Shown: in pieces, positions 20,340 through 55,300 of the stretch | How the letters are laid out: each line of letters starts with the position of its first letter | How positions within the stretch are numbered: the first letter of the stretch is position 1 | From: Roseibacillus sp. | Lineage (GTDB): Bacteria > Verrucomicrobiota > Verrucomicrobiia > Verrucomicrobiales > Akkermansiaceae | Assembly: GCA_051251855.1 (NCBI GenBank) | Contig: JBPOGI010000001.1 | Coordinates: forward strand, 608,001 to 672,000 | Direction of reading: 5' to 3' | Length of the DNA stretch: 64,000 nucleotides | Translations under genes and position numbers: made by a program | The notes under the pieces: generated by a model | Database searches by the model: none | What the model saw: the letters and a program-made list of their open reading frames with translations, nothing else | Told to the model about the DNA's origin: nothing

Positions 20340-23300
20340 TTACTGGCTGCTGTCTTCCTCAACAAGAACGCGGAGATATCCTCGCTCATGGTCCGACTCT
20401 GAGAGACGGAAGGTGAGGTAGTGATATCCGTTAGGTGCTACGGGGACGTTGCTTGGATTAGGAATGAAGGTGACGCCCTGATCCCAATCTTCGAGGTCGG
20501 AGGAGCCTTGGAAGGTGTAGATGAGGCCAGCTGCCCGATAGCTATTGCGCCCGAGGGTTCCACCGACTGCGACGGGAACGGTCTGGCAGCAATTGCCTTC
20601 ATGGTCGAAACCGAGAAGAAGTTGTGGGCGGCTTGAGGATGAGCCTTGATTTGAGCCGAAGGCAAATTCAAGGAGGTTGCTCGTGTTATCGCCATCGCTG
20701 TCCATCATTGCCGCGGCTTGTTGCCCGGTTTCGCTGAGCGTTGTGAAGGTCAGGTTGGACGCGGGTGCGGTTTCAATGAATTCGAACCAGTTCACATTAA
20801 CGGCATCGCCGATCATCTCGAGGCGAAGTACCCTTTCTCCAGAGGTGGCAATAGCTAGGTTCGGGAGAGTGAAGGTGACCCAATTTCCCCAACCGCCGGT
20901 GGACTGAACGTCAATCGTGCCAAGAACTTCACCGTCGAGGGTGACTCGGACGTCGCCCACGATGGACTCGTTACTGGAAGCGCGTAGGTTGAGCTGATAG
21001 ACGCCTGGTGTGGTGTTGAGGGTGTATTCCATCCATTGAGCATCATCAAACCAGCCTACATTAAATCCACCGTCAGTGTCACCAGAGGGCTCGATATCGA
21101 CGGCATCACCGCGATAGGAACCGCCAAAGTTCTCGGGGTCGGCATCGGAGTAGGCAACGCCTTCGCCGCCGAGGTCGTAGTCCTCAGCCTGAACGCGGCC
21201 GGGGACGGCATGGGCGGTGCCGCCGAAGGGCGACTGTCCCGTTGGAGGGGGAGGAGCGACGGATCCGTCGTCGAATTCAACCCAGTTCAGGTTGAAGCCT
21301 GCGGCTCCCGCGAATCTCAGTCGAAGGATGTGGCTGCCGGTCTCTGTGATGGTCACTTGGGGAATGGTAAGAGTCTCCCAGTTATACCAATCGCCGGTGC
21401 CATTGACGGAGAAGACACCGAGTGAACGACCGTCAAGTTCGACAGCCAGTTGACCAGGGAAGGTAAAGCCACTCGCGATACGTGCGTTGAGGTCGTAGGT
21501 GCCTGGGGTCACATTGACCGTGTATTCGAGCCATTCGCCGGGGTCGGTCCAACCGATGGAGGGAGTGGCGTTGGTGTCGAAGGAGGCCTCGATATCGACT
21601 CCGCTGGTGCGGTAGTTGAGGTCGGTATAGGTGAGACCGAAGTTCTCTTCCTCCGAGTCAAGGTAGGCTTCTCCTGGGCCGTCTTCGTCGAAGTTTTCGG
21701 CTTCAATTTTACCAGGGATATTGGCTGCCACTCCGCCGAATGGGGTTTGGTTGCCGGTCGGAGGCGGAGGAGTGACGGAAGGGTCACGGAGTTCGAGCCA
21801 GTTGAGGTTAAAGGATGATCCTTGATATTCGAGACGCAGGACGGCGTCACCACTAGGTACGGTGATGCTGGGGAGAGTGAAGTCTTCCCAGAGATACCAA
21901 CCTCCGGTGGAGTCGATATCGATTTCGCCGATAGGGCTGCCGTCTAACAGAACACGTATGGTTCCGGGGATAGCGAGTTCGCTGGCAGCGCGAGCCACAA
22001 TATCGTAGGTGCCAGCGGTGAGGGTAACGGAGTATTGAGTCCATTCACTGTCTTCGAGCCAGCCGATGGCAGGGGTGTCGTCGGTGTCGTTAGAGGCTTC
22101 GAGGTCGACGCCTTCGTCACGGAAGTTGGGACCAAAGTTAGCACCGAAGTTCTCGGGGTCGAGGTCACTGTAGGAGATGCCGGGACCACCAGTATCGTAG
22201 TTTTCGACTTGGAGCCGGCCGGGAAGTGCTGTCGGGGTTCCTCCGAAGGCAAGTGAGGCATCGGGAACTTCGTCTGGTTTACCTTCGAGCTGATTGATGA
22301 AGGATACCAGATAGTTGCGTTCCGTGGTGGTGACCGAAACGCCGTCATGGGCATCGATGGCGGCGGCGAGGTCGGGCGCGGAACCGTCATGGAGATAAGG
22401 GGCACCCGCGAATGCAGTGAGGAGAGAAGGGGTGTCGAGGCCGGGGAGGTTGCCGCCGAGACGTTGACCCGAAGCGGAAGTCAGAGTGCCGATATCGTGG
22501 AAGGAACTTCCGGAGTCCGTGAAGGCGCTTCCGCTATGACAGTCGACGCAGCCCTTCGAGGTGAAGAGGTCGCGGCCCGCGAGGCCGGCTGCGGTGAGCT
22601 CTCCGGCATTTGTGCGGTGCGGGGAGACCGGTTTCTCAGTCAGGCTTCCCAAGTAGGCTGCGAGGGCATCAAGGTCGGCACTGCGCCCGCCGTTAGGAGT
22701 GCCGAGTGGTGCATGGGGAGTGCCGTTCGCAATGAGTCCTGATCCTCCCGAGAAGTTGCGGATTTGGCCTTCGAAGTCTTGAACCTCATCAAAGTTGGCG
22801 GACCAGTGGAAGGGGCCGTGCTCTTCGCCGCCTCGGCCGTGAAGCTCGATGGTGTTGCGGAGTCCTTCTCCAACGCCGGTGAAGTCCCAAGTACGGCCGT
22901 CGTGTCCGGCGTCGTTGTGGCAAGAGGCGCAGGACATGTAGTTCTCCAAACTGAGTCTGTCGTCAAAAGAGTCGTAGAAGAGTTGTTTGCCGAGAAGGAT
23001 TTGAGCTGGCAGAGCTTCTGCAGCCGTCGCATCTAAGGTGGCGACGGTAGAAGAAGTTTCGGTTCCGTTCTCTACAAGGGCCGCAATATCGTGAAGGGTC
23101 ACGGATCGGCTCATGAAGTTGTGAACGAGGAGTGTGTGGCCGTCAGCAGAAAGAGCGAGGCCTTGGGGTGCTCGCTCCACGTTGATGCGGAAGAGCTCTT
23201 GTTCTCCGTAGACGTCGACGACGGAGACTTCGCGGGATCCTTCCAGTGCGACGAAGAGGTGTAGCCCGTAAGGTCCATAGATTGCTGCTGAGGGTAGTCC

Positions 23301-26300
23301 GGAGTTGTCAAAGTCGATTCGGCTTAGGTAATCCTCATTGTTTGTAGAGAGGTTCAGGCGCGACGTGACGGAGCGGACTGTATTCTGGTGGTCGAGTTGG
23401 CGTCCGTCGCGAAGCATTCCGCGTTCGATGTTGTCGAGCTTGGAGGGAATCCAGGCGGAGTCATTGGCGGGGGAAATGGCAGGGGCACCCAAATAGTTGG
23501 GGAGTCCACGGCCGCCGCCAGCGAAGTCACTTTCGGTGGAGGCTTGCAAGCGAGTCGTGGTGAGAGAACTTGGGTTGGCTGGGTCCATGATGCCGATGTA
23601 ACCGCCAGCGTTAGTGAGGTTAGGGTTCGCCGTAGACTCGCCGGGAGCGGGTGGGGAGATAAAGCGGGGTAGGTAGAGTTGGCTTCCGTTGTGGTTGATG
23701 GCGAGGTGGCGGGGACCTTCGCCCGCATCGTGACGACCGAGATTGCCACCAGTCGTGGGATTCAGCTGGGCGACGAGGCCGTCTGCTTCCAAGGCAACCC
23801 AAGCGCTGCTTCCATCAGGGCTATGCACGACTCCGTGAGGTTGGGAACCTCGGGGGAAGACGCGGGTCACTAAGCTGTAGTTGTTCGGGTTGATGATGGA
23901 GAGGGTTGCGGAGTTCTTGTTGGTGACCCAAACCCGTCCATCGGGGGCGAGGCTGAGGGTGCGAGGGGAGTCGCCTACCGCGACCTCGGTAATTTTGTTG
24001 CCGGTCACGAGGTTGAAGACGCTCACGGTGTCTTGGTCTGGATTAACGCTCCAGACTTGCTCGTTGGTGCCATTGCCCACAGTGATGACGGGTTGACTAT
24101 TGCGAGGACGGTTGGCGGTGAGTGCAGGGTGAACGAGATGAGTGATGCGCCTCGTGACTGAAGTGCCATTGTTGTCAGTCGCTGTCAGGGTCACTGTATA
24201 GCGACCAGGATTGGCGAAGGTATGGTTGGCCGCTGGGCTGGTGGAAGTGACTTCGGCGGTGCCATCACCAAAGTTCCAATTATAGCTCACGCCTGTTCCT
24301 CCCGTGGCTGCCACGGAGAAGTTGGTGGATGAACCCGACTGGCTTGGAGTGGTGAGAGTCTCGGGGAGGGTAATGGCCGCGCGAATGATCCAGCGGAAGG
24401 TGCGCGAGGCCTGTTCACCAGCAGGGTCGGAAACGGTGACGATAGGGTTGTAGGTCTGCGGACTGGTAGGGCTTCCTGTCATGCGGCCGCTGGTCGCATT
24501 CATGGTTAATCCTGGCGGTAAACCTGTGGCGCTATAGGTGAGAGTGTCTCCGTCGGCGTCCGAGCCGAAGGCTCGAATGTTGATAGCCGTTCCGACAGTG
24601 TGAATACGGTTGGCTAGGATGGCTAAGGTAGGAGCTTGGTTGTCATCAGGAATGAAGGTCACGCGAACTGACTCCAGTTCGAAGTGAGCAGACTCGCTGA
24701 GACCGTTCTTTTTCGAGAGGTAGGCGCCGAGGCGCAGGGTATGATTGCCGGCGGGAAGGATGGCTGAAGAGACAGTGGAAGTGAGGTCGCCCGAGTCGCC
24801 GCCACCGGTGTTTTGATAGAGGTAGCTATTGCCGTTTGTTCCGAGTAGCTGTCCGCCAATAGAGACAAGGGCTTGGCTGTTTTCATCGCTATCGAGAGTA
24901 AGATCCGCATCGAGTCTCCACTGGGGGCTGACGACAATGGTGCCCGGCTGGCTTAATGAGATCGTTCTTTGCCAAGCTCCCGACATCCCAGTGCGGCCAG
25001 AGGTGTCGACTCCTCCCAATTCGACATGAAGGCGACCATCACGAACGGGTGAACCCGAGCGACCTGCTTGGAAGTTGGTCGCGATATCGGCATTGGTCAG
25101 GCGTTTGCTGTAGACCGCAAGAAGATCGTAGTCGCCCAGCCAAGCGCGATCACCCGCCAGTTCGTTGGCGAGGGCAAATTGATAGGAAGGATCCCAGTTG
25201 GTGAAGTCGCCGGGAACGGTGGCAGATTTGATGAGGGAGCCGTTGAGGTAGATACGACCCACTCCGTCTGAGATGGTGTAGACGACGTGCTGGTAAGCGA
25301 TGGCTGCAGGGTTGGTGGTCGTTTCAACTCCAGGAAGTCCGTTGGTGGAGGTTTGCGGAGTGCGGACCCGTCCGTGGTAGTTGAGGGCTTCCTGTCCAAG
25401 GGTGAAGTTGCGCAGACTGGTTGTGCTCGAGAGTGTCGCAATGCGGGCAGGTCCTGCTTGGGTGAGATTTTGAGGACGGATCCAGGCCTCGATGGACATG
25501 GCATTGCTCGTGGTGATGGAGTTGTAGAGCTTACTTGCTGCTCCCGCGCTGCGGATGAGGGTGCTGCCGTTGACGCTGAGAGTTCCATCGCCATTCCAAG
25601 CGGTTTGAGCGGGTGTGGTGATGGTGAGGTTAAGCGGAGTGCCATTGCCAGCCACGTCGTAGACGATGTTAGAGTTTGCCCCTTGGTCAAAGGTATAGAG
25701 AGCCTGAAGAGTGCTGCCGGCGACTCGGCTCTGAATAGCGTTAACACCACTGGCGTAATTAGGGTTGTTGGTGCCACGGAAGGCGTCATCGACGTAGCTA
25801 AAGCCACCGTCGTCACTTTCAAAATCTTCTTCGAAAAGGAGACTGCCATCGATGGTCCATGGCTGTGTGCTAGAGACCTGTTGGCTATCGCTATCAGTGA
25901 CAGTGATGGTCACGTTGGTAGTCCCAGTTGCGGTCGGCTGGCCGGTGATGGCTCCAGTAGAGGAGTTGAGTGAAAGTCCCGCAGGGAGGTTGCTTGCCGA
26001 AAAGGAATAAGGGGGCACCCCTCCGCGAGCGGAAACGCCGTGATTGAGACTGGTATTGAGGAAGGCGTTGAGGGGCGCCTGATGGGTGAGAGAAAGTTCT
26101 CCGACTTTGATGCGCAGATAAAGACCGTTGCGATTGTTGAGGTTAGAGGACCAGACCCACTTGGCATCCGAGTCGACGGGGAATCCGGAGATGGTATTCC
26201 AAGGGGAGCTGCCGAGACCGCCGTGTTCGGTGGCGGAAGACCAAGAGGAGTCATTGAAGTTGGGTTGTTCCCAGCCTGAGGGAGCGGTGTGCGACACTTT

Positions 26301-28535
26301 CCAATCTGAGGAGGTTGTGACGAGCTCACCATTGACTCGAAGTTGCCCGAGTAAACCTGTGGCGCCTACGACGTCGGTCACGTGGATGGCAATGGTCGAA
26401 CTTTGGCTGCCTGAGAACGAGGTGGTCGTTGCGTTGTTAGAGTTGAGACCGATCTGAGTCAGTTGACCATCGACGTAGAGTTCGTGGCGGTTTTGGGAAG
26501 CGATAGTGGCCTCGTTGAGAGGCTCGATGGCGCGCAGCACGCGGGAGGGAACGATGGCCTTGGGAGTGCGAGGGCTGGACCACTTCAGCTGAATGATCGA
26601 GGCAGCAGTACCTTGAAAGTAGTCGAGGCGAATGGGGACGGGGACTCCTGCTTGGAGGCTGATGGTCGCCGAGTTCTCGGTGGATCCGTGGTTGGTCCAG
26701 TTATTGATGATGAGCTGGTCATCAATCCAGAGCCGGACGCCGTCATCTGATTGGGTGTGGAAGGTGTAGGTTTCGCTATACTCAGGAATGATCCAACCGG
26801 TCCAGCGAACGGAGTAGGTGTCGTTGCCGACGAGGTCAGGGAGGGGTGAGTTGGAGGTCGAGGTGTAGTCGATGAGGGCATCGGTACGAGTTTCCTTCAA
26901 AGTGTTGAAGCCGGTGCCATCGTAGTATCGAGCCAAAAGGCCGCTGGTGTCGGCGTCAGAGGTCTCCTTGACGTGAATGATTTTGGCTTCGGAGTAGGAG
27001 CCGTTGGCGCGGGTGCCGAACAGCATCCAGTAACCAGGAACCATGACATCCTTGTTAGGGTGAGAGATGAGTTGGTATTTTCCGCTGGAGGTCTCGGTGA
27101 AGGGAATGTCGAGAAAGCGTTGGTCTGAGGTGACGCCATGGGTGATGGCAATCATACGAATCATGGAGAATCGACGGAGGTTTGCGGAGGCATCAACTTC
27201 AAAGACCGAGCCTAATGAAACTGCATCTGGTGCGGTCGTAATAACGGGACGCGCAATAGGTTCGTTGCTGGCATTGAGAAGAGCGGGGGGAGTGAGAATT
27301 TGTGCATCAGGGTGGGTAGCGGGATGATTGGCATTGCCGACACCGGAGAGAAAGCCACCACCACCAGAAAAGACGCGACCGTCGGGCAAGAGTGCCGCGG
27401 TGGAGTGGTAGTTGCGAGGGATGGCCATGCTAGCAAGAGTGCGCCAAGTTCCGGTGGTGGGGTTCCAGACCTCGGCAGGGAGAATAGAGCCTGTATCAGA
27501 GAAGCGTTGACCGGTGGTGTTTCCTCCGATGGCAACGACTTCGCCTGAGGGCAATGCGACAATGTTGTGAAGACTGCGAGCAAAGGCCATGGAAGAAGTT
27601 GTCTCAACCGTGGGCGGAGTAGTGTTGAGATCAACGGTGTAGCAAAGCTTGCTGGCGGCATTCGAGGCGGCAACGGCAGCGCCACCGACGATGAGATACT
27701 TGCCGGAGCCATACATGACGATGCCGCCGTCGTGGGGATAATGGTTTCCTGGGACGGTGACTCCTGCGGAGATGCGTGAGCCGTTGCCACTGGCATCGAC
27801 CCAATGCATGGCATCCGTGGGGCCAAAGTGAAAGAGGCGTCCATCGGGAGCGACCATGAGGAAGGGCCAGCCTTCACTCTCGAATCCGGCCGCGCCTGAT
27901 ACCGGCTGCCAGTTGATACCGTTGAGCAAATTCCATTGGTTGCTATCACGGTCGAAGCGTTCAGCTTCGTTCGGGCTTCCTCGGCCTCCAAAGGTGGCGA
28001 CGTCTCCATCGGGGAGCGCTACCGCGGTGGTATACCAGCGCGGACCATTCATATCAGAGACGCGATTCCACGAATTGGAGCGCCAGTCATAGATGGAGGA
28101 GTGTTCGATGGTGAAGCGGCCGCCTACTGTTTGGAGGAGACCGTCGGTACGCATCACGGGGTGGGCGCAGAACATTTCGTGACCTTGATAGAGATCGTTC
28201 GCGAATTGGGAGGTCTCGGGATTCCAAAGCGACCAGTGAGTTCGGTGAGCCGTTCCGGGCCAACTGAGAAGCTCTTGTCCAGAGTAGGTGAGGAGCTTGC
28301 CGTTGGGAAGGACCGCCAAAGAAACCGGAACATGCGGCCAGTCGATGACGGGTCCCCAAGAACCTGCGCGCGTGGAAATGGTGGGAGCCGCTGGAGTGGC
28401 GGTGTAGTTGGGCAATAGGGAGGCCGCCTGCTGCCAAAACGCATCGTCTTCGGCGTGGACGTTGGCATCAGCGAGTGAGCTCGTGAGGGAGCTGAACCAA
28501 GTGATGAGGAGGATGAACAGGGTGGAACGTTTCAT
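20340..28535 (-). CDS. 2731-aa secreted multidomain copper radical oxidase: kelch/galactose-oxidase + DUF1929, PA14, jelly-roll, Ig-like, LamG, PKD, YVTN beta-propeller, di-heme cytochrome c, 3x CBM6-like, C-terminal motif
   Basis: Signal peptide; EMFC, RWY, RNYHS, ITHG Cu/radical motifs; GLLARYYDG...SDDGVRLWID (PA14); YNWNFGDG (PKD); CASCH and CVDCH; three PGxxxxExYD repeats. Confidence 0.9.
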   Translation of the reverse strand: MKRSTLFILLITWFSSLTSSLADANVHAEDDAFWQQAASLLPNYTATPAAPTISTRAGSWGPVIDWPHVPVSLAVLPNGKLLTYSGQELLSWPGTAHRTHWSLWNPETSQFANDLYQGHEMFCAHPVMRTDGLLQTVGGRFTIEHSSIYDWRSNSWNRVSDMNGPRWYTTAVALPDGDVATFGGRGSPNEAERFDRDSNQWNLLNGINWQPVSGAAGFESEGWPFLMVAPDGRLFHFGPTDAMHWVDASGNGSRISAGVTVPGNHYPHDGGIVMYGSGKYLIVGGAAVAASNAASKLCYTVDLNTTPPTVETTSSMAFARSLHNIVALPSGEVVAIGGNTTGQRFSDTGSILPAEVWNPTTGTWRTLASMAIPRNYHSTAALLPDGRVFSGGGGFLSGVGNANHPATHPDAQILTPPALLNASNEPIARPVITTAPDAVSLGSVFEVDASANLRRFSMIRMIAITHGVTSDQRFLDIPFTETSSGKYQLISHPNKDVMVPGYWMLFGTRANGSYSEAKIIHVKETSDADTSGLLARYYDGTGFNTLKETRTDALIDYTSTSNSPLPDLVGNDTYSVRWTGWIIPEYSETYTFHTQSDDGVRLWIDDQLIINNWTNHGSTENSATISLQAGVPVPIRLDYFQGTAASIIQLKWSSPRTPKAIVPSRVLRAIEPLNEATIASQNRHELYVDGQLTQIGLNSNNATTTSFSGSQSSTIAIHVTDVVGATGLLGQLRVNGELVTTSSDWKVSHTAPSGWEQPNFNDSSWSSATEHGGLGSSPWNTISGFPVDSDAKWVWSSNLNNRNGLYLRIKVGELSLTHQAPLNAFLNTSLNHGVSARGGVPPYSFSASNLPAGLSLNSSTGAITGQPTATGTTNVTITVTDSDSQQVSSTQPWTIDGSLLFEEDFESDDGGFSYVDDAFRGTNNPNYASGVNAIQSRVAGSTLQALYTFDQGANSNIVYDVAGNGTPLNLTITTPAQTAWNGDGTLSVNGSTLIRSAGAASKLYNSITTSNAMSIEAWIRPQNLTQAGPARIATLSSTTSLRNFTLGQEALNYHGRVRTPQTSTNGLPGVETTTNPAAIAYQHVVYTISDGVGRIYLNGSLIKSATVPGDFTNWDPSYQFALANELAGDRAWLGDYDLLAVYSKRLTNADIATNFQAGRSGSPVRDGRLHVELGGVDTSGRTGMSGAWQRTISLSQPGTIVVSPQWRLDADLTLDSDENSQALVSIGGQLLGTNGNSYLYQNTGGGDSGDLTSTVSSAILPAGNHTLRLGAYLSKKNGLSESAHFELESVRVTFIPDDNQAPTLAILANRIHTVGTAINIRAFGSDADGDTLTYSATGLPPGLTMNATSGRMTGSPTSPQTYNPIVTVSDPAGEQASRTFRWIIRAAITLPETLTTPSQSGSSTNFSVAATGGTGVSYNWNFGDGTAEVTSTSPAANHTFANPGRYTVTLTATDNNGTSVTRRITHLVHPALTANRPRNSQPVITVGNGTNEQVWSVNPDQDTVSVFNLVTGNKITEVAVGDSPRTLSLAPDGRVWVTNKNSATLSIINPNNYSLVTRVFPRGSQPHGVVHSPDGSSAWVALEADGLVAQLNPTTGGNLGRHDAGEGPRHLAINHNGSQLYLPRFISPPAPGESTANPNLTNAGGYIGIMDPANPSSLTTTRLQASTESDFAGGGRGLPNYLGAPAISPANDSAWIPSKLDNIERGMLRDGRQLDHQNTVRSVTSRLNLSTNNEDYLSRIDFDNSGLPSAAIYGPYGLHLFVALEGSREVSVVDVYGEQELFRINVERAPQGLALSADGHTLLVHNFMSRSVTLHDIAALVENGTETSSTVATLDATAAEALPAQILLGKQLFYDSFDDRLSLENYMSCASCHNDAGHDGRTWDFTGVGEGLRNTIELHGRGGEEHGPFHWSANFDEVQDFEGQIRNFSGGSGLIANGTPHAPLGTPNGGRSADLDALAAYLGSLTEKPVSPHRTNAGELTAAGLAGRDLFTSKGCVDCHSGSAFTDSGSSFHDIGTLTSASGQRLGGNLPGLDTPSLLTAFAGAPYLHDGSAPDLAAAIDAHDGVSVTTTERNYLVSFINQLEGKPDEVPDASLAFGGTPTALPGRLQVENYDTGGPGISYSDLDPENFGANFGPNFRDEGVDLEASNDTDDTPAIGWLEDSEWTQYSVTLTAGTYDIVARAASELAIPGTIRVLLDGSPIGEIDIDSTGGWYLWEDFTLPSITVPSGDAVLRLEYQGSSFNLNWLELRDPSVTPPPPTGNQTPFGGVAANIPGKIEAENFDEDGPGEAYLDSEEENFGLTYTDLNYRTSGVDIEASFDTNATPSIGWTDPGEWLEYTVNVTPGTYDLNARIASGFTFPGQLAVELDGRSLGVFSVNGTGDWYNWETLTIPQVTITETGSHILRLRFAGAAGFNLNWVEFDDGSVAPPPPTGQSPFGGTAHAVPGRVQAEDYDLGGEGVAYSDADPENFGGSYRGDAVDIEPSGDTDGGFNVGWFDDAQWMEYTLNTTPGVYQLNLRASSNESIVGDVRVTLDGEVLGTIDVQSTGGWGNWVTFTLPNLAIATSGERVLRLEMIGDAVNVNWFEFIETAPASNLTFTTLSETGQQAAAMMDSDGDNTSNLLEFAFGSNQGSSSSRPQLLLGFDHEGNCCQTVPVAVGGTLGRNSYRAAGLIYTFQGSSDLEDWDQGVTFIPNPSNVPVAPNGYHYLTFRLSESDHERGYLRVLVEEDSSQ

Positions 28536-30241
28536 GGTGAGTTGGGGAATTTGTGGTCAGTGAGGGTATTGAGAAAAGCGAGGAGATCGGCCTTGTCTTC
28601 GTCGTCGAGGTCAAGTCCGGTCTGGGGGTGCTTTGCGAGGTTGGGGTCGAGGGTGGGAGAGCGTTTGATGCCGGAGTTATAGTGCTCAATGACTTCTTCC
28701 AGAGTCTTAAAACGGCCGTCGTGCATGTAGGGCGCAGTGAGGGTGAGGTTGCGTAAGGAAGGCACTTTGAGCTTGCCGCGATCGTTAGGGTCTCCAGTGA
28801 CCAGTTCGCGGCCTAGGTCCTTGAAAGTGTTCGAAAGGCCGTTGTTGTGGAATCCATGATTGGTAAAGAGAGAGCCACCGTGGCAGTGGAAGCAATCCGC
28901 TCCTTTGAGGCCGTTTGCAGGGTCATGCTCGGTCACGAAGAGTTCGAAGCCGCGCTTTTCTTGTTCGGTGAATTCGACCTCGCCTCGCATCGCTTGGTCG
29001 AAACGGGCTTCCTGCGAAACCAAGGAAAGGAGGTATTGCTCGAGAGCTTTGGCGAGGTGATCCGAGGAGGCTTCCGCGATTCTAAAAACAGTTTCGAATT
29101 GTTGTTGGTAGTGACTATCGCTGTTGATGCGAGTCAGGGCTTCCTCGAGAGGAAGAGCCAGTTCGTCAGGATGCTCGATGGGGTGGAGGACTTGTTCCCG
29201 TAGAGTGGTCGCGCGGCCGTCCCAGAACATTTCTTTGTGCCAAGCGAGATTGAAAAGAGGCATTGAGTTACGAGAGCTCTTTCCACCGAGATGTCCGACG
29301 GAAAAGGCTTTGCCGGTATCAGAGAAGGCGGCTTCTGGTTGATGGCAACTGGCGCAAGAGAGGTTACGATCGTGAGAGAGGGTGGTGTCAAAAAAGAGCT
29401 TCTTGCCCAGGGCGATTCCTTCGGCTGTGAGGGGGTTATCAGCAGGGAAAGCTGGCTTGGGAAAGTGGCTTTGAATCAACGGCTGACCCGAGGAGGCTGA
29501 AGGCGACTCTAGGTCTGCGCCCGTGGTGGGAGGGTGGAAGACACCAGAGTGAATTTTCTCTACGGAGAAGCTTTTGGCTAAAGCTTCGGACATCAGTTTG
29601 GCGACGGGATCTCCGGTACGGGAATGAGTGGAAGTGGTCGCCCGAATATCAAGGTTTGAGCCTCCTAAGAGAGGGGAGAGGTCGAAGCGGAGAGAAATCG
29701 TGCGTGCACTTTGCGCAGACAGCGAGAGAGGGAGGGTGATGGTGGTGGCGTTCTCGTCATTGCCCAAATGATAGAGGAAGCCAAGGTCGCTCTCGCTGTG
29801 ACCTTCGACGGCGCAGAAAATGTAGCCGGTTTGCCAAGTCCAGTGCAGATTGTTGAGTTGGGGATTGAGAGGATGATCGGCTGGGTAACGATTAGGGTCG
29901 GAATGATTACTCTCTGAATCCAAGCCGACCACGAAGCGAATCGCACGATAATCGCCGGTTGGAATTTGACCTAAGGAGAAGTGGGTTCGGTTGTTCGAGT
30001 GAGAGATGAAGGCAACGAGACTGGCGTTGGCTTCCATCCAAGAACCGTCTTTGCGCTGGAGGGCAAATTGAGAGAGAAGGGAGTCGCAGCGAGTGACCTT
30101 GATTCCGTCCACTTCCTCTCCGAGTTGGTAAGAGCGGCCCGAAAGCTCCAGTTCGAAGGTAAGATCACAACGTGTCGTCTGAGCCTGAGCGGGCAGCAGA
30201 AACAGGAGTGGGAACAAAAAATGATGAGCGATCTTCCTCAT
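28532..30241 (-). CDS. MbnP-MbnH fusion: copper-binding WxW domain fused to a di-heme (MauG/bCcP superfamily) enzyme
   Basis: Signal peptide; GLDSESNHSDP, LHWTWQTGYIF, YHLG (MbnP); PADNPLT...LGKKLFFD, SCASCH, FWDGRA, CFHCH, KVPSLRN, PYMHDGRF (MbnH). Confidence 0.88.
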   Translation of the reverse strand: MRKIAHHFLFPLLFLLPAQAQTTRCDLTFELELSGRSYQLGEEVDGIKVTRCDSLLSQFALQRKDGSWMEANASLVAFISHSNNRTHFSLGQIPTGDYRAIRFVVGLDSESNHSDPNRYPADHPLNPQLNNLHWTWQTGYIFCAVEGHSESDLGFLYHLGNDENATTITLPLSLSAQSARTISLRFDLSPLLGGSNLDIRATTSTHSRTGDPVAKLMSEALAKSFSVEKIHSGVFHPPTTGADLESPSASSGQPLIQSHFPKPAFPADNPLTAEGIALGKKLFFDTTLSHDRNLSCASCHQPEAAFSDTGKAFSVGHLGGKSSRNSMPLFNLAWHKEMFWDGRATTLREQVLHPIEHPDELALPLEEALTRINSDSHYQQQFETVFRIAEASSDHLAKALEQYLLSLVSQEARFDQAMRGEVEFTEQEKRGFELFVTEHDPANGLKGADCFHCHGGSLFTNHGFHNNGLSNTFKDLGRELVTGDPNDRGKLKVPSLRNLTLTAPYMHDGRFKTLEEVIEHYNSGIKRSPTLDPNLAKHPQTGLDLDDEDKADLLAFLNTLTDHKFPNSP

Positions 30242-32192: not shown

Positions 32193-34616
32193 CTACTTGT
32201 ATTCGAGGATTGCAGAGGCTTTGGTGTCCTCGTTCGAGACGAAGCGGATCCAGTAGGCTGAGAAAGCCTTGGGGAACGTGTGATCGATGTTTTCGCTGAT
32301 TTGGAAGGTTTGGTAGTTCACCCAATTACCGTCGCCAGTGAGATCCACTTGGGCGGTGATGGTGCAAGGTATACTGGCGGAGAGGGTGAGATGTTTTTCG
32401 TCGTAGGCGGTCATGAGGTAGGGGTCGGAAGGGGCTCCGGCTTTGACGGGGGTCTCTTTCCAAGGTCCGCCTTTTCCTCGTGGTTTTCCTAGCTTCCAGG
32501 TATCGTCGATGGCTCCGGCCCAGAGCGCGGTTTTGCCGTCATCGGACCGGATGAGGTGTGGGTTGTTAGATTGGGTGTCTTCTTTAATGCCACTCAGGAT
32601 GAGGAGGCCGCGATAGGAGCAGAAGTCGTGAATGGCAAGGTTGTGGGTCGCGACGGGACGCACTTTGGTGAAGCCGCCGGCGTTGCGCGCGGGAAGTTCG
32701 TAGAAAGTGCCGCCAGCGTTGAAGAAGTCGCGTTCGGTGGCGACTTCGCGGGCGATGCGGTGATTGCCGAGAGGGTGTTCGTCGAGATTGCTTTTGGGCA
32801 AGCGCCAACGGTTGCCGTCGTCGTCGGTGTAGATGAGGGAGGCTTCATCGACGGTGAGGGGACCTGAGGCGATGGCGGCATTTTTCTTTGTGAAACGATG
32901 GGATGCGGCGTCGTCGATTCTTTTGAGAGCGAGTTTCTCATCGAGTTCGTAGTAACCGAGGTCTTCTCCATTGGAGTCTACTGCAGCGAAGGCGAGAGTT
33001 CGTTTGTCTTTGTCGCGAGCGCGCACGATTCCACCGGTGAGAGAGTCGTCTTTGGTTGCGAGGTCGGCGAAGATGGGGTCGTTTTCGCTGCTGCGGTCGT
33101 CTTTGTTTCGGCAGGTGAAGGCGGCGGTGACGTTCTTGAGATTGGTTTCGGCAACAAGACGAATCCAAGCGAGTTCGGGGTTGCTCATGGAGAAGAAATC
33201 GGTCTTCTTGAACTCAAGGGATTTGAGAATTCGCCACTGGCCGGTTCCTTTTTTGTCGAACTCAAGTCGCACTTTGGCCGTTTCTTCGTTGTCGGTTTTG
33301 AGTTGGAGGGTGTGGAGGTTGTAGCCTGAAGCGAGAAAGGGATCGGAGATGGTGCCAGCTGCTATGTCTTCGTTTTTCCAGACACAACCTCGTCCGATGG
33401 CGGGACCCAGGTTGTCGAGGGTTTCGGGCGCGATGAACCAGAGGTTGGATTGGGACTGAGGGCCCGCGATATGTCCTTTCGCTTTTCGTTTGTTGAGGAA
33501 TTCGCTCTTTGCGGTGTCGTCACAACCCATCACCAAGCGGTCTCCCCAACGGCAGAAGTCGCCGATGACTTTGAGATAGTTGGAACGGGGAGAAATGCCT
33601 CTGGAGTTGGTGGGGGAGAAATCTTTGGGGAACTTCCAAAAGGTGCCGTGCATGGTCATCAGGAGATCTCTTTCGCCAATATCGCGGATGCGTGGCCACT
33701 CGGTGTTCCATCCGTGGGCGCCGTCGTAGGAGTGGGACCCCTTGGGGAGGCGGTAGAAGGACCAGCCTTCTTCGGGAGTGCGCACGCCGAGGAGGAGAGA
33801 TTTATCATCCCAACCTATGGCCCAGATGGGATCGGTTGCGGGATTGGGATTGCCGTGGATTCCTCCTGGACCCGTGATATCGGTGAATTGATTACGGCGA
33901 ATGATGGTCCACTCGTCAGACTTGCCATCCCACTCTGCGAGGACGCCAGAAGGAATGGTGGGTTCTTTCTTGGCTGCTCGAGTTGGTTCGCCGTTGTTAG
34001 AGTAGGTGACCACTCCTTGTCCCGAATACAGTCCCTTACCGTGATAGCCGGGAAGGAGAGAAAGGCGTCTTTCTTCGCTGGAACGGCTCTTTGATTGGTC
34101 GGCGACTTGTTGCTGGTCGTCGGCGAAGAGTTCGGTAGGCTCGAGGGTCTCGACATCAACCTCGTAGAGTCCTTCTTCCATGGTCGCGAAGTAGATTTTC
34201 CCCTCGGGGTCGAAGAGGTGACGCGCGTTTCCGGTATGACGACCGGGCATTTTCTCGTAGGGAATCGCGCGGACACTGCCTTCGGCTGAGATGGCATACG
34301 GCCCCATGAAGAGCTGATTGGACTCTCGGTGAATCATACGATTGGCGGGGGTGCCGCCAAGGGATTCGGGGTGGATGGTTTGGGTCAGGTCCTTGGAAAT
34401 GGAATAAAGTTTGTCGTCGGAACCTTTGGGCCAGTGAGGAGCATAGGTCATCACCCAAAGCTTCTCACCAAAAGGAACAATAGCTCCGGTTCCGCACTCG
34501 GCGTGGGAATTGAACATCGCGAGATGGGGATAGATTCCGGAAAGCTGCACCGGTTCAGCGCAGAGCGGGGAGGTAAGGGTGAGGCTGAGAAGGACTTTTG
34601 AGAGAGAGCTATTCAT
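32193..34616 (-). CDS. Secreted hypothetical protein (807 aa) with internal duplication
   Basis: Signal peptide, long ORF, duplicated GTF...DFC...G-x-G-x-x-WK...SDP[FY]L motifs. Confidence 0.8.
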   Translation of the reverse strand: MNSSLSKVLLSLTLTSPLCAEPVQLSGIYPHLAMFNSHAECGTGAIVPFGEKLWVMTYAPHWPKGSDDKLYSISKDLTQTIHPESLGGTPANRMIHRESNQLFMGPYAISAEGSVRAIPYEKMPGRHTGNARHLFDPEGKIYFATMEEGLYEVDVETLEPTELFADDQQQVADQSKSRSSEERRLSLLPGYHGKGLYSGQGVVTYSNNGEPTRAAKKEPTIPSGVLAEWDGKSDEWTIIRRNQFTDITGPGGIHGNPNPATDPIWAIGWDDKSLLLGVRTPEEGWSFYRLPKGSHSYDGAHGWNTEWPRIRDIGERDLLMTMHGTFWKFPKDFSPTNSRGISPRSNYLKVIGDFCRWGDRLVMGCDDTAKSEFLNKRKAKGHIAGPQSQSNLWFIAPETLDNLGPAIGRGCVWKNEDIAAGTISDPFLASGYNLHTLQLKTDNEETAKVRLEFDKKGTGQWRILKSLEFKKTDFFSMSNPELAWIRLVAETNLKNVTAAFTCRNKDDRSSENDPIFADLATKDDSLTGGIVRARDKDKRTLAFAAVDSNGEDLGYYELDEKLALKRIDDAASHRFTKKNAAIASGPLTVDEASLIYTDDDGNRWRLPKSNLDEHPLGNHRIAREVATERDFFNAGGTFYELPARNAGGFTKVRPVATHNLAIHDFCSYRGLLILSGIKEDTQSNNPHLIRSDDGKTALWAGAIDDTWKLGKPRGKGGPWKETPVKAGAPSDPYLMTAYDEKHLTLSASIPCTITAQVDLTGDGNWVNYQTFQISENIDHTFPKAFSAYWIRFVSNEDTKASAILEYK

Positions 34617-34687: not shown

Positions 34688-36382
34688 TCACTCTTCAGCT
34701 TTGTTTTGCAACATCTCGGTGCGAGCTTGCCGCAGGGGAGGAGAGGCGATGGTGGAGGCCACCTTCAAAGCTTGGGGGAGGTTGGTTGCGGAGAGTTGGT
34801 CGGCGAGCATGTCGAGAGCTCCGTCGCGGGTGGGACCGTCGGGAATGGATAAGACCCAGTTGGAAGTGTCGCCGGGGTCTCTGACATACCAGTTCTCAGT
34901 CACGGCGCGGGCCAGATCAATGCGGAGAAGGCTTTCGGGTTGAGTCATGACCCAGGTGCTGGTGTCTTGGGGAGAGATGCGGGACCAGCCTCGCACCACC
35001 GCGTCGACAGCTAACATTTGGATGTCTTCGTTTTGAAAAGACTGGGCCCAAGAGATGGCCGCTTGAGGGTCTTCTTGTGCGAGGGGGTAGGCGACGGAGT
35101 TAATGGCAGCGGGTTGTTCGGTTTCGGAAAGCTGTGGGACGAAGTTACTTGCCTTCTCAGGCTCGAGGAGGGCCCAGTAGGAGAAGGCGCTTTGCAGGGC
35201 TTCCTGCCGAATGGAGACCTCTTGTGGGAAACTGGCAACCCACTGGACCGCTTCGGCAGGTTGGCTGCGTGCCCACGAAGAGGAGAGCGAGAGCCAGGCC
35301 GCATCTCGGGCTTCAGTTGTGGGTAAGTTTTCGGCCCAAGTGAAGGCTGCTTGCGGGTCTTTGCGTCCGAGATTGTCTGCGAGTTGAGCTGCGGCCAAAT
35401 TGAGGCTTTCTCCTGAGGGGAGTCTGTTCACAAAGTCCATGGCCGCGGCAGGGTCGGTCTCACTCCAGACATCGAGAAGATTGTTCATTGCCAAATCGTG
35501 CAGTCGACCTTCTTCAAACCCTTGCAACCATTCGAGGACCGCATTGGGTTGTTCGACGGCGAGAGCCCGGACGACTTTCAGAACGGTGGCATCGCGGACT
35601 TCTCCTGCTGGGAGTTGACTGACGAACCCACTCGCTTCATGGGGATCGCGTGCGATGAGTTCGCGGATACTCTCTAACAGAATACGATCCATTGCCTTGC
35701 CGGTTAGGTTTTCCTGCGCAAGGAGAAAGGCACTTTCCGGTTCGGTCTTTGCTCGAATGGTCAGGGCGGCTTCAAGGGCGGCCTCATGAGTGTCTTCTCC
35801 TTGGAGGGTTTGGGCCCATTCCCAAGCGGCGGCGAAGTCGTCGCTTGCCCAGCGGGTGACTAGGGCTCGGGTGGCCCGCGTGAGAGCTTCGCCGGGGGGC
35901 ACGAGGGAGAGTAAGGGTTGCGCTTCTGCGATGTCGTCTTCCGCAAATTGTGAAAAGAGAGCACTGTAAAGAATGAGGTCTTCACTCTGGATCGCCATTT
36001 CCTGCGCGAGTCGCAGAGCGCGCTCGGGGTCGGTTTCTGCGATTCCTCCCAAGACGACGAGAAGGCCGGCGGTGTATTCGTTTCCGGGTGGCAGCCCCTT
36101 GAGATAGGCCAGAGCGCCTTCTGGATCTTCTTTAAACCAAGCTCGCAGATTGCGGCCAAATTGCGCCGAACGAACGCCGGGAGCTGGATCTTGGAGAGCT
36201 TCGTTCAGTCTTGTTTCCCAGCCAGCACCTGAGTTCCCTGTGCTCTTGGAGGACTGGGTAGTGGAGGTTGGGTCTTTGGAGGGGTGCTGAGGGGCTGTCT
36301 TCTTCCAAGCAAAGAAGATCACCCCGAGGAATAGCGCTCCGGAGGTGAGCGCTCCAATCCAAGAGCGAGAGACTTTTGGCAT
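34688..36382 (-). CDS. Membrane-anchored alpha-helical repeat protein (DPxxAxxW repeats)
   Basis: N-terminal TM, Ser/Thr linker, many units such as DPQAAFTWAENLP, QPAEAVQWVASFP, DPQAAISWAQSF. Confidence 0.8.
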   Translation of the reverse strand: MPKVSRSWIGALTSGALFLGVIFFAWKKTAPQHPSKDPTSTTQSSKSTGNSGAGWETRLNEALQDPAPGVRSAQFGRNLRAWFKEDPEGALAYLKGLPPGNEYTAGLLVVLGGIAETDPERALRLAQEMAIQSEDLILYSALFSQFAEDDIAEAQPLLSLVPPGEALTRATRALVTRWASDDFAAAWEWAQTLQGEDTHEAALEAALTIRAKTEPESAFLLAQENLTGKAMDRILLESIRELIARDPHEASGFVSQLPAGEVRDATVLKVVRALAVEQPNAVLEWLQGFEEGRLHDLAMNNLLDVWSETDPAAAMDFVNRLPSGESLNLAAAQLADNLGRKDPQAAFTWAENLPTTEARDAAWLSLSSSWARSQPAEAVQWVASFPQEVSIRQEALQSAFSYWALLEPEKASNFVPQLSETEQPAAINSVAYPLAQEDPQAAISWAQSFQNEDIQMLAVDAVVRGWSRISPQDTSTWVMTQPESLLRIDLARAVTENWYVRDPGDTSNWVLSIPDGPTRDGALDMLADQLSATNLPQALKVASTIASPPLRQARTEMLQNKAEE

Positions 36383-52319: not shown

Positions 52320-55300
52320 ATGATAAAAACGACCGCCCCGATGGCATTTGCAATGGGGGTCTTCAGTCTCCTCAATAGTTACGCCGAGACCATCCGAATC
52401 GATACTGGGTCAGACCTCGTGAGTCAGTCTCCTGGAAGCCAAATTTCCTTGGATGGAGTTCCGGGGTATGACTTTGGAGGTCAATTAGTAAGCGTTGATC
52501 GGCTGAGCGATCAGACTTTGAGGTTGGTGATTTCGGGGGATCTCGTTTTGGCTGCCGGAGCTCGGTTGGAAGGGGTGGGCCCCTTTCCGGTGATTCTGGA
52601 AGTGGGGAATGACGTCTTGATTGAGGATGGGGCGGTGATCGATTTTTCCGCCATTGATAGGGTTCCTGGGGCGGGTGGAGCAACTGGAAGATGGGGCGGA
52701 GACGGTGGTATCTACGGGCGTGGAGGCCGTGGCGGAGAGGGCGGAAGAGGAGGATTTCGTGGGCTTGGAGGGCTGGTGGGAGATGTGCCCGGAGTTCCTC
52801 CGATTGTGCCATTGAACTTAACGACACCGGGGACTCCGGCTTTCTCGGGGAAGTCTGGGGGAGCTGGAAAACGGGGTGAATTGGGGGGGGATGGCCGGAC
52901 GGGACGCCAAGGTCGGGCGGGTGCTGGTTGGACTGGGAGCGGAGGTTCTTGGGGCCTACCTCAGTTCTCCTTGGATCAGTCGTTTCATGACTCTCCGGAG
53001 GCTTCGGGGAAAGGGCGTGCGACAAGCTATAATCCTTTGTTCGCGAGACCTCCTATCTACATCGAGAATGACTGGGAGCGGGGACTGATCTATGGGGATG
53101 GGGATGGCCGAGGCTTGGGGATACCGGGGACAAATTTGTATTTAGGAGACGAAGGAGTTGATGCTTCGAATGAGGAGATCTTCCGCAGCCACTACTATGA
53201 TGGTGGCCATGGCAGTGATGGGCTCTCATTCTCGACGCCCGGGCCAACCGACGTTCAGATTCCTGCTTCGAAACATCAGGGAGATGGCGGACAGCACGGA
53301 GCTCCGGATTGGGTTCTAGGCGGAGGGGCATCAGGAGGCTCTGGAGGAGGAGCTCCAGGAGGCCGTGGGGGCACCGGTGGTGCGGGCGGAGGGGGAGGGG
53401 CCGGAGGTCAGGGCCAATTTCCCGATCCCTTGCCGATTCAGCTTTCAGACTTCGCGGCGGGGGTCGGAGCGAATTATTTAGGTGAATTTTTCGAGGCAAA
53501 AGCGAATGCACTGGCTAAAGAGACAGGAAAAAGTGCGAGTAACTTGTATAAAATCTTTAGCTACGGCGTGGGTGCGGGTGGTGGCTCGGGAGGGCGCGGT
53601 GGCGATGGCTCTGCGGGAGAGATCGGAGGGCTAGGCGGAGGAGGTGGAACTGGCGGCGCTGGAGCTGGAGCGCTGCGGATCCTTGCCCAAGGAGAGATTC
53701 GGCTGGAAGGGAAAGGGCGATTCCTCGGCGGAGAGGGTGGCGCTGGTCAGGCGGGGCTGGCTCCATTTGGTTTGGGGTCCGGGCAGAGTCCGGAGGGGGG
53801 AAGCGCTGCTAAGATTCGGATTCCGCCTGTGTCGGTCGATGAGATGTTGGAGACGCTTTTCACCTTAGGTGAAGGCGGGGTCCTCGATCCGAAGTCTGGC
53901 TTTGGCGGTAGAGGAGGAGATGGGGCTGAGGGGCAGGCTGGCTACTGGGGCGGAACGGGTGCGGCGGGGGGAGGTGGTTCGGGGGGAACTCTGATTCTAG
54001 AGGGGAGTCGAGTGCGCGTGTCGCAAGCAGTGAAGCTAGCTGGCGGTAGCGTCGGAGAAGGTGATCGAGAGGGAGGAGCAGGGCGTCTCTATGTGGCTAC
54101 GAACGAACTCGTAGCGGGCACGAATTTGTCGGCGGCGGGGGTCTCGGTCGCTGGGACGTATCGGGAGTCTCAAACGCGAGTCGGCACCCGAGCTACGAAT
54201 CCGTTCATTCGAGGAGGTCTTCAGACTCCGACCTTGGTCGAGATTTTCGATGGAGCTGAAGGGTTTGGCTATTTATCGGATCGTCAGGTGAGTAACGATC
54301 CTGCAGAGGCGGATCAACTCTTGGTCAATGGGATGAGTTTGGCGGCTCATGCCAATGCTTTGGCTTTGCCAGATGCGGCGGTGGTTGCGGCGGTTCGACT
54401 CGATGATGGGCCGGATGGTTTTGGGCTCGATGCCTTGTATCCAGGTTATGATATGGTGCTGGTTTTCAATCCTCGGTTGTCAGAATTATGCGAGGTTCGC
54501 TTTGGAGTTGCTGAGCAAGCGCTTCCGATAACGACAGGAAATGCGGCGGCCTATCATGCTGCGATTTTGCGCGAGGGGGGCGCGGAGAACGACCGCCACT
54601 TCGGGGGAGGTGGCGATTTGCTGACGGGGTTGTTCGCGGTTGGGAATCAGGATGTTTACGCGTTTTTGGTGCCAGAGGATACAGGAGCAAGCGGTTATAA
54701 TTTCGCGATCAGTGCAACCGCAAAAGGGGCCCTCGGGGCGGAGGCTGTTTTCGTGGGATCGGATGAGCACTTTGTGAATGGGGAGTTCCTCGTGGTGAGT
54801 GCTTCCGCAGATATCCCGGTCTATGAGGCTGACTGGTTGGCCGGAGGCTCGAGTCTGAAGTGGGCTCTCGAGACAAATTGGATAGTGCTCGACCCTCAGG
54901 GGAGCCCGGTTCCGGTTCCGCCGAACAATACTCTCTTGGAGGCCTACAATGTGCGGATCGAGGCTGGAGGTGAAGAGGTGGAAATCGGGGGCGCGACTAC
55001 GGCGGAAGATTACTCGGTGACTATTGACCGGATGATTGTGGGGCCGGGTGACTCGGTGAAGGTCTTCGACGGGAACGACTTTTGTATTGAGAAGTTTTTC
55101 GTCCGCAAGGAAGCGGGCGTGATTGAGAATGAGGGAATCCTGCGGGTGGAAGGAGATGCACGGCCCACTCAGCTCGGTTTCTTAGGGAGTGCCTTGGTAT
55201 TGACTGGCAGTGGAGAGCTGGTGACTTCGGTTTCAGGGCAGAATTCGATTTATGGTAAGAGTGGCAATGATGGTCTCATCCAAGAAGCGACCCATACGGT

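Follow-up and report, generated by a model that had tools for sequence, protein, structure and literature searches.

Copper radical oxidases (CROs) of family AA5 share a Kelch propeller followed by an E-set domain, together with the same five active-site residues, as seen in 9g8h/9g43, in the galactose oxidase (GalOx) of Fusarium (1gof) and in the Colletotrichum enzymes (6ryv/5c86). Their cofactor needs an oxidant near +0.4 V, peroxidases activate them and, as biocatalysts, they lose activity unless horseradish peroxidase (HRP) and catalase are added (PMC11611005). In Streptomyces, maturation of the CRO GlxA requires Sco and the peroxidase DtpA, which takes up the H2O2 made by GlxA (PMC4736821). 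In fungi, a tandem peroxidase oxidises the resting alcohol oxidase (AlcOx) to its radical form (PMC9770985). A different family shows another way of joining domains: in hydrazine synthase beta-gamma (5c2v) and its fused non-anammox homologues a propeller leads directly into a di-heme domain with a bis-His second heme, and beta-gamma-like proteins of open function are widespread (PMC12758564). Here we describe a gene of Roseibacillus sp. that unites both themes. The window analysed is a stretch of 64,000 nucleotides (assembly GCA_051251855.1, contig JBPOGI010000001.1, positions 608,001 to 672,000), and the gene encodes an exported chain of 2,731 residues in which a CRO, unlike the AA5 enzymes cited above, is fused to a propeller-di-heme module and to many binding domains (Table 1). 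By analogy with the partnerships just named, the module may consume peroxide on board and re-activate the radical of the tethered CRO, a reading to which we give a probability of about 0.45.

The CRO assignment is not a matter of chance, since residues 50-525 match the 'galactose oxidase' 9g8h with an E value of 3.5e-76 and Fusarium GalOx with 1.1e-55, and since five residues align with those of the active site. A preliminary description of this DNA had listed these galactose-oxidase-equivalent residues, and C123, Y168, Y376, H377 and H466 do fall on the known motifs in the 9g8h alignment: Cys, Tyr, Tyr, His and His occur in the order proper to AA5, on a Kelch propeller with its E-set domain. 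Of 117 homologous domains that were aligned, 115 have all five intact (the other two are cut at their N-terminus), as do 262 of 267 complete fusions, the exceptions being three cut sequences and two with Ala or Ser at the Cys column. W167, adjacent to the radical Tyr, would be the counterpart of W288, which lies beside Y289 in GlxA (PMC11611005). As in Streptomyces, then, we deal with a bacterial exported CRO with Trp beside its radical Tyr, but the domain is nearer to GalOx than to GlxA (4unm, E 2.3e-24); against the GlxA equivalog model NF052501 it scores 134.7 bits where the cut-off is 800, with model positions 266-645 alone covered. Nor does it look like a galactose 6-oxidase (AA5_2). W290, which stacks in GalOx, and R330 and Q406, which bind the sugar (PMC11611005), have no equivalents: measured against the family profile, the W290 position lies within an insertion (the G186 region here), and the other two positions are E219 and A290, in columns that vary across the family. 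With a second sphere so unlike that of Fusarium GalOx, the substrate probably varies among members, and galactose is probably not oxidised here in the GalOx manner. Copper binding, a Cys-Tyr cross-link and oxidation of an alcohol or aldehyde with H2O2 release are what the residues predict, and the Sco and MbnP neighbours lend this prediction some indirect support.

The propeller and the di-heme region model as one unit (predicted local distance difference test, pLDDT, 93.5; predicted template modelling score, pTM, 0.94), and the YVTN-like propeller and di-heme domain of the preliminary description are borne out by Pfam and NCBIfam as well as by this confident model. The best structure match of the propeller is hydrazine synthase beta (5c2v_B; Z 36.6, root-mean-square deviation 1.9, 304 residues aligned; next match Z 35.1). 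For the di-heme domain, which folded alone has a pLDDT of 79.9, it is hydrazine synthase gamma (5c2v_C; Z 18.9, deviation 2.8, 222 aligned), followed by bacterial cytochrome c peroxidase (bCcP, Z 16.0-16.1), MauG (about 15), MbnH (14.9), BthA (14.1) and RoxA (11.4); a family profile search of the domain again put hydrazine synthase gamma on top. A seven-bladed propeller joined directly to a gamma-like di-heme domain is the beta-gamma arrangement, yet this is not a true hydrazine synthase. The match to NF052342 (E 1.2e-14) is far below the cut-off of that model, and of the hallmarks, a third heme Cys at gamma-165 and a His at gamma-144 (PMC12758564), neither is found: the domain has no Cys beyond the four of its CxxCH motifs, and W1911 stands at gamma-144, as Trp does in the non-anammox homologues described in that source. 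Hydrazine synthase or those homologues further differ by extra c554 hemes and an alpha partner; here the extra hemes are missing, no alpha partner is seen and a CRO is fused on, and no alpha-like recurrent neighbour appeared in neighbour clustering.

The residues of the di-heme domain were mapped through the neighbouring MbnH onto MauG and the bCcP of Nitrosomonas. Two CxxCH motifs, the sole ones of the whole protein, a di-heme peroxidase fold and the inter-heme Trp (W1911, 136 of 136 fusions) place it in the bCcP/MauG superfamily. With bCcP, MauG, MbnH and BthA (PF03150) it also shares the PY motif and the Asn of the Ca site (130/136); P2046, of the Thr-x-Pro of that site, is present in 136/136, so that by sequence the Ca site is there. 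It differs from these proteins in three respects: a propeller cap, a distal Gln/Pro/Glu triad out of register (bCcP, MauG and BthA have it at Trp+10, +14 and +20), and His rather than Met or Tyr at heme 2. That residue, H2063, sits 14 residues past the His of PYxH, which by alignment spacing is where MauG has Y294 and bCcP its Met. Heme 2 is therefore predicted to be bis-His, and the His/Met electron-entry heme of a canonical bCcP is missing from every one of the 136 fusions; heme 1 is probably the open, reactive heme. What had been called a di-heme peroxidase-like unit thus keeps the fold, the two hemes, the inter-heme Trp and the Ca site, while losing canonical peroxidase status. The propeller in turn displays an invariant polar cluster (G1677-Y1681, K1699, D1701, N1702, R1709, R1721, R1739 and D1741).

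The union of CRO and di-heme module in one chain recurs as a large multi-phylum family. A module search restricted to proteins of 1,502-4,780 residues found 2,385 of them; of the best 120, 118 have an N-terminal CRO and the other two seem to begin mid-domain, and one member comes from Nitrospira. Searches free of this length restriction agree. Eighty genome loci, a selection out of 580 or more matches, cover Pseudomonadota, Myxococcota, Chloroflexota, Acidobacteriota, Deinococcota and Verrucomicrobiota: 72 are intact fusions, six are cut at a contig end and two have a frameshifted CRO just upstream. Among 79 metagenome loci, 64 are fused, 13 are cut, in one the CRO occupies a frame of its own immediately upstream and one is an intact stand-alone module. 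Seen from the other end, 97 of the nearest 150 CRO cluster representatives have the heme domain, and seven more reach as far as the propeller but stop short of a full heme domain. Across 61 related genomes, each of the 10 full-length CRO matches falls within a fusion frame, with three partial matches outside. In 267 of 267 fusions the CRO is N-terminal and the propeller abuts the heme domain (gap of -1 to 5 residues). Hundreds of independent fusions rule out an assembly artefact. These counts, with the fixed order, show that the pairing is selected.

The pairing also outlives its oxidase, since different CRO lineages sit on close heme modules. As cases in point, the CROs of L088 and L056 are 31% identical for modules at 70%, and those of L041 and L060 31% for modules at 63%, which points to CRO replacement, or to module homogenisation, under a kept architecture. 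Nearer to our gene, full-length homologues are 76-81% identical over the module, and that of Roseibacillus persicicus is 76% identical there and 85% over the CRO. Several genomes carry tandem or multiple fusion paralogues (L033, L045, L094, L101; L056/L088/L095), sometimes with CROs of different deep clades, and in Rivibacter (P0002) one CRO is followed by two near-identical propeller-di-heme copies. Trees here and below are FastTree trees, used without clade tests, and no order of events is claimed from them.

How might such a chain work? A copper protein encoded next door, MbnP-MbnH in this genome and Sco in others, would help to load copper, and Cys123 and Tyr168 would become cross-linked. 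The CRO would then oxidise a primary alcohol, which probably belongs to a glycan bound by the PA14, LamG and CBM6 domains, releasing H2O2, which would reach the propeller-capped heme 1 and give a high-valent, compound-I-like species, with Trp1911 and the bis-His heme 2 as a relay for this oxidant. One-electron donors would discharge it, including the radical-less, off-cycle CRO, reached by loose collision or through a mediator. The discharge would both regenerate the CRO radical and remove inhibitory H2O2, a job done in trans by HRP, by DtpA or by the tandem peroxidase of Colletotrichum. In hydrazine synthase the bis-His gamma-II heme lies at about -330 mV and gamma-I near 0 mV (PMC12607021); if the potentials are similar here, the ferric hemes alone would not be expected to oxidise the cofactor, so that activation would need H2O2. 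The proposal finds support in the selected pairing of oxidase and module; in residues that the module has retained, namely the inter-heme Trp, the Asn of the Ca site and the PY motif; in BthA, where the bis-His variant Y463H loses the bis-Fe(IV) feature and retains H2O2 reduction (PMC6405878); and in the Sco and MbnP neighbours, which match the requirement of GlxA maturation for sco and dtpA. Radical regeneration or H2O2 use in cis, already put forward in the preliminary description, stays the most likely function, as an inference. The same potentials bear on the idea that the CRO is a dehydrogenase whose electrons go to the hemes rather than to O2, much as cellobiose dehydrogenase uses its cytochrome domain. 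That the chain contains two c hemes, and that a mono-heme cytochrome gene is near it at 13 of 80 loci, would fit; but a bis-His heme near -330 mV would be a poor acceptor for a cofactor needing an oxidant near +0.4 V, and a fold of the peroxidase family whose open heme is capped is more than a simple wire. We consider this idea very improbable.

Several observations weigh against an on-board peroxide consumer and re-activator, and the first group concerns the hemes. The MauG triad Q103/P107/E113 aligns to F1921, I1925 and G1931 or to a gap; there is no Trp at the position of MauG W199 (K1994 here, variable), and His replaces the Tyr ligand at heme 2. Loss of the distal Glu in BthA harms the bis-Fe(IV) feature as well as peroxidase activity (PMC6405878). 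Finally the nearest fold is that of a non-peroxidase, hydrazine synthase gamma. Without a Tyr ligand and a surface Trp at the W199 position, long-range oxidation in the style of MauG is disfavoured, and a MauG-type bis-Fe(IV) route in the module is unlikely. Peroxide chemistry as such is possible, to judge from BthA, where Tyr-to-His substitution keeps H2O2 reduction and distal-Glu loss impairs it; it would require a non-canonical acid, for which the invariant residues E1890, H1910, E1917, D1920 and Q1924 are candidates.

Two other accounts draw on these facts. The module could be a non-peroxide enzyme acting on NO, O2, hydroxylamine or the aldehyde made by the CRO, its low-potential electrons entering through the bis-His heme 2, perhaps from the small cytochrome c encoded nearby; compare NO reduction in hydrazine synthase and the O2 chemistry of RoxA. 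Both halves match hydrazine synthase best, heme 2 is predicted to be bis-His like gamma-II, the module lacks the distal triad, some loci have a gene for a mono-heme cytochrome at hand, and Arg takes the place of the Ca-site Asn in 13 of the 24 short forms without CRO described below. This account, which we hold unlikely, has to face the missing third heme-linked Cys, the Trp at gamma-144 and the lack of an alpha-like gene in the neighbour clustering, and it does not explain why the module is so tightly linked to an enzyme that makes H2O2 and depends on O2. Conversely, the heme module might be the business end and the CRO its peroxide generator, the heme oxidising a separate small substrate or a glycan end as when glyoxal oxidase feeds lignin peroxidases. 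The module is indeed the more conserved partner (median identity over 135 fusions 55%, against 37% for the CRO), its invariant Lys/Asp/Asn/Arg cluster in the propeller could line a pocket, it persists with other N-terminal partners or alone, and the CRO pocket is variable. Yet the missing distal triad is as awkward for this division of labour as for ours, and no downstream pathway gene is conserved, the recurrent neighbours being Sco, the mono-heme cytochrome and housekeeping genes. It too is doubtful, to about the same degree as a non-peroxide enzyme.

The second group of adverse observations concerns the tightness of the link between oxidase and module. The stretch from CRO to propeller measures anything from 101 to 1,222 residues (median 483). 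Identities of CRO and module correlate weakly (Spearman 0.17, above the maximum of 0.127 in 200 permutations and inflated by kinship), and strict co-evolution of the two was rejected for this reason. Among the nearest 150 CRO representatives six are long and have no module, and 40 are short-tailed, many of these being fragments and one a false Kelch-repeat match; close CROs without the module account for 14 label changes on the tree. Twenty-four short forms without a CRO branch within the fused clade, at five or more places (tree with 136 fused rows), and in a sister family, taking its best 120 matches, an LVIVD propeller (with Big_5) replaces the CRO in 110 and a CRO is found in none. One could accordingly see in the chain mere co-display, two uncoupled enzymes on a secreted scaffold with interchangeable binding domains: each domain occurs without the other, the spacers are highly variable and the histories of CRO and module differ. 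To be sure, this would not be expected to preserve the same order in all 267 fusions, to let fusion dominate among close CROs or to survive CRO replacement, and the Pfam lists show no further known catalytic domain that recurs beside the two or between them; we regard co-display as improbable. A complex prediction of the CRO propeller (E-set omitted) with the propeller-di-heme module gave no answer (score 0.00) and is not used as evidence.

The forms without CRO are telling in themselves. The sister family has the same invariant heme residues as the CRO fusions, and stand-alone clusters related to the propeller-di-heme module are common in the Atlas; with the nested CRO-less forms, they argue that the module has an activity of its own. 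The gene context of the short forms was seen for two of them. L113 is an intact stand-alone module on a 3.4-kb contig with no CRO in view, and L126 has its stand-alone copy next to sco and a complete fusion. Split systems, with a stand-alone module and a separate CRO gene, were sought by a metagenome scan with a stand-alone query, which returned mostly fusions. Stand-alone lipoprotein versions form a group of their own (P0195-P0233, L113), and the Arg found at the Ca-site Asn in 13 of the 24 CRO-less forms recalls the Lys-for-Ca site of BthA. As for the LVIVD propeller of the sister family (L013-L025, L151, P0375-P0494), 108 aligned close members share an invariant Glu-x-His, three Tyr, a Gln and an Asp-His, a set that suggests an uncharacterised catalytic or metal site; this propeller may be a new redox enzyme. 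Homology to SBP56/methanethiol oxidase, considered because of a motif, was dropped: PF05694 was hit in one of 12 members (E 0.12), and no SBP56 structure came up in the PDB search. At L151 a CRO fusion and sco are situated opposite the sister-family gene.

Copper-related genes surround these fusions. Directly upstream of ours, a gene fuses a copper-binding WxW domain (WTW) to a MauG-type di-heme domain which has the Gln/Pro/Glu and the Tyr ligand (HY); with an E value of 6e-53 against 6e1c, it belongs to the MbnP-MbnH family (PMC11951088). In Verrucomicrobiales this gene is upstream in seven of seven fused relatives fetched and in none of 13 CRO-less loci, kin that are not independent of one another; it is also found at L076, and a genome of the same genus carries both genes. 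Present at one of 80 cross-phylum loci, it is rejected as a universal partner. MbnP matches occur elsewhere too (26, in 21 of 61 related genomes): the partnership is lineage-specific and not exclusive. Frames of MbnP-MbnH length are seen in 21 of the 61 genomes, and a second MbnP-MbnH fusion gene of the same genome (G000:C6:354973-356772) stands beside an exported-looking open reading frame of 998 residues.

Elsewhere the copper gene is of the Sco1/SenC type (CxxxC), within 500 bp of the fusion at at least 44 of the 80 genome loci, on the same strand in 43 (several loci are cut short), and inside at least 45 of the 79 metagenome loci. These copper-delivery neighbours mirror the GlxA-Sco-DtpA system of Streptomyces, and the presence of Sco suggests a dependence like that of GlxA with its Sco/ECuC. 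The parallel has its bounds: DtpA is a separate peroxidase of the DyP type with b heme, whereas an in-chain di-heme c module is found here, and no cellulose-synthase-like gene recurred in the clustering. The fungal AlcOx-peroxidase pair is likewise a CRO-peroxidase partnership, but one of two genes, with a class II b-heme peroxidase. A gene for a small mono-heme cytochrome c, a possible electron donor, lies close by at at least 13 of the 80 loci; at L044, L066, L074, L080, L094, L103 and others it (CxNCH) adjoins both fusion and sco, and the one tested had no Pfam match. At three gammaproteobacterial loci (L062:12314-13954, L081:12331-13920, L107:4802-6541) a YtkA-like domain fused to a MauG-type di-heme domain adjoins the CRO fusion, possibly a third type of copper-related partner. 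Beyond Sco, the mono-heme cytochrome and housekeeping genes, clustering of neighbours at the 80 loci brought out no recurrent gene.

Table 1. Features of the CRO fusion gene and its upstream neighbour (window coordinates; residue numbers are those of the 2,731-residue protein; aa, amino acids; CBM, carbohydrate-binding module; ORF, open reading frame).
Feature	Position	Strand	Basis
MbnP-MbnH fusion gene, 569 aa, upstream, overlaps CRO-fusion start by 4 nt (ATGA)	28532..30241	-	PF20243 E 1.5e-33, PF03150 E 5.5e-53
Whole gene, exported CRO / propeller / di-heme / CBM fusion, 2,731 aa	20340..28535	-	single ORF; full-length homologues
Probable Sec signal peptide, about aa 1-24	28464..28535	-	read by eye from sequence
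CRO domain, Kelch propeller and E-set Ig, aa 55-523	26967..28373	-	PF07250/PF13964/PF09118
C123, cross-link Cys (GalOx C228 equivalent), EMFC	28167..28169	-	motif position; 9g8h alignment
W167-Y168, Y168 the radical Tyr (GalOx Y272 equivalent), RWY	28032..28037	-	Y 266/267, W 244/267
Y376-H377, copper ligands (Y495/H496 equivalents), RNYHS at 27416-27402	27405..27410	-	each 267/267
H466, copper ligand from E-set domain (H581 equivalent), ITHG at 27146-27135	27138..27140	-	267/267
PA14 domain, aa 531-662	26550..26945	-	PF07691 E 3e-27
LamG / ConA-like lectin domain, aa 1003-1152	25080..25529	-	PF13385 E 1.1e-18
Ig (He_PIG) and PKD spacers, aa 1316-1464	24144..24590	-	PF05345, PF00801
YVTN-type propeller with seven blades, closest in fold to hydrazine synthase beta	23061..24068	-	structure match 5c2v_B
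Di-heme c domain, bCcP/MauG fold, nearest fold hydrazine synthase gamma	22266..23045	-	5c2v_C; profile E 1.3e-22
Heme 1 motif CASCH	22917..22931	-	motif; conservation
N1894 (equivalent of the Ca-site Asn) to H1910-W1911 (equivalent of the inter-heme Trp)	22803..22856	-	via neighbouring MbnH to MauG, bCcP
Heme 2 motif CVDCH	22536..22550	-	motif; conservation
PYLHDG	22400-22383	-	motif position
H2063, predicted sixth ligand of heme 2	22347..22349	-	136/136 fused, 24/24 CRO-less
Three CBM6/CBM35-like modules, about aa 2105-2590	20766..22223	-	PF03422, three stretches, E 2.6e-48
C-terminal tail, last ~130 aa	20343..20738	-	common to 5 other ORFs of genome, E 4e-14 to 0.0025
Terminator-like hairpin directly after stop codon	20317..20333	-	consensus match alone

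All the motifs picked out in the preliminary description lie at their places in a single open frame. Its span, 22285..28370, was right in taking them as one chain and too short, as the gene continues through the CBM6-like modules and the tail to 20340. The Pfam order is Kelch/glyoxal-oxidase/E-set, PA14, He_PIG, LamG, He_PIG, PKD, YVTN-like propeller, CCP_MauG and three CBM6-like domains. The tail that follows is probably a sorting or anchoring domain, given its relatives in the genome. Terminator-like hairpins of the kind seen after the stop codon number 14 by consensus search, against 9.4 in shuffled sequence. Upstream of the operon on the same strand lie two exported-looking frames, of 807 (32193-34616) and 564 residues (34688-36382, with a repeated helical motif). 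The plus strand of the window has a frame of 2,971 residues (52320-61235); none of the three has a match in Pfam or NCBIfam. Two macroalgae metagenome runs, both from a single study, contain short contigs that match the gene at about 95-100% identity, which gives a weak hint of habitat.

CRO-peroxidase partnerships and beta-gamma-like fusions are each known, and it is their union in one chain that appears undescribed. Full-text literature searches, whose coverage leaves out most subscription journals and bioRxiv supplements, found no description of a CRO-di-heme fusion, and the work on beta-gamma homologues lacks the word 'galactose' in its main text and, in the one supplement consulted, the words 'galactose', 'DUF1929', 'kelch' and 'glyoxal' (PMC12758564). 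More tentatively than for the role proposed in the CRO fusions, the propeller-di-heme module might stand for an uncharacterised class of heme redox engine, kin to hydrazine synthase beta-gamma, handling H2O2 without the distal triad and activating tethered catalytic propellers, the CRO in one family and LVIVD in its sister. Compact members, with CRO, PKD, propeller and di-heme domain in about 1,250-1,300 residues (P0002 and P0077, for example), and cultured carriers such as Roseibacillus persicicus, Rivibacter subsaxonicus, Steroidobacter agaridevorans and Haloferula sargassicola make the fusion testable. A chain with a built-in activator and a sink for peroxide would be of direct use, where CROs now depend on added enzymes, and it would put the cooperation of CROs and peroxidases in bacteria to the test, while the fixed oxidase partner offers a handle on what beta-gamma-like hemes do. 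If this tentative reading of the module as a redox engine is true, we would have a natural self-activating CRO, together with a first function for the widespread non-anammox homologues of hydrazine synthase beta-gamma.

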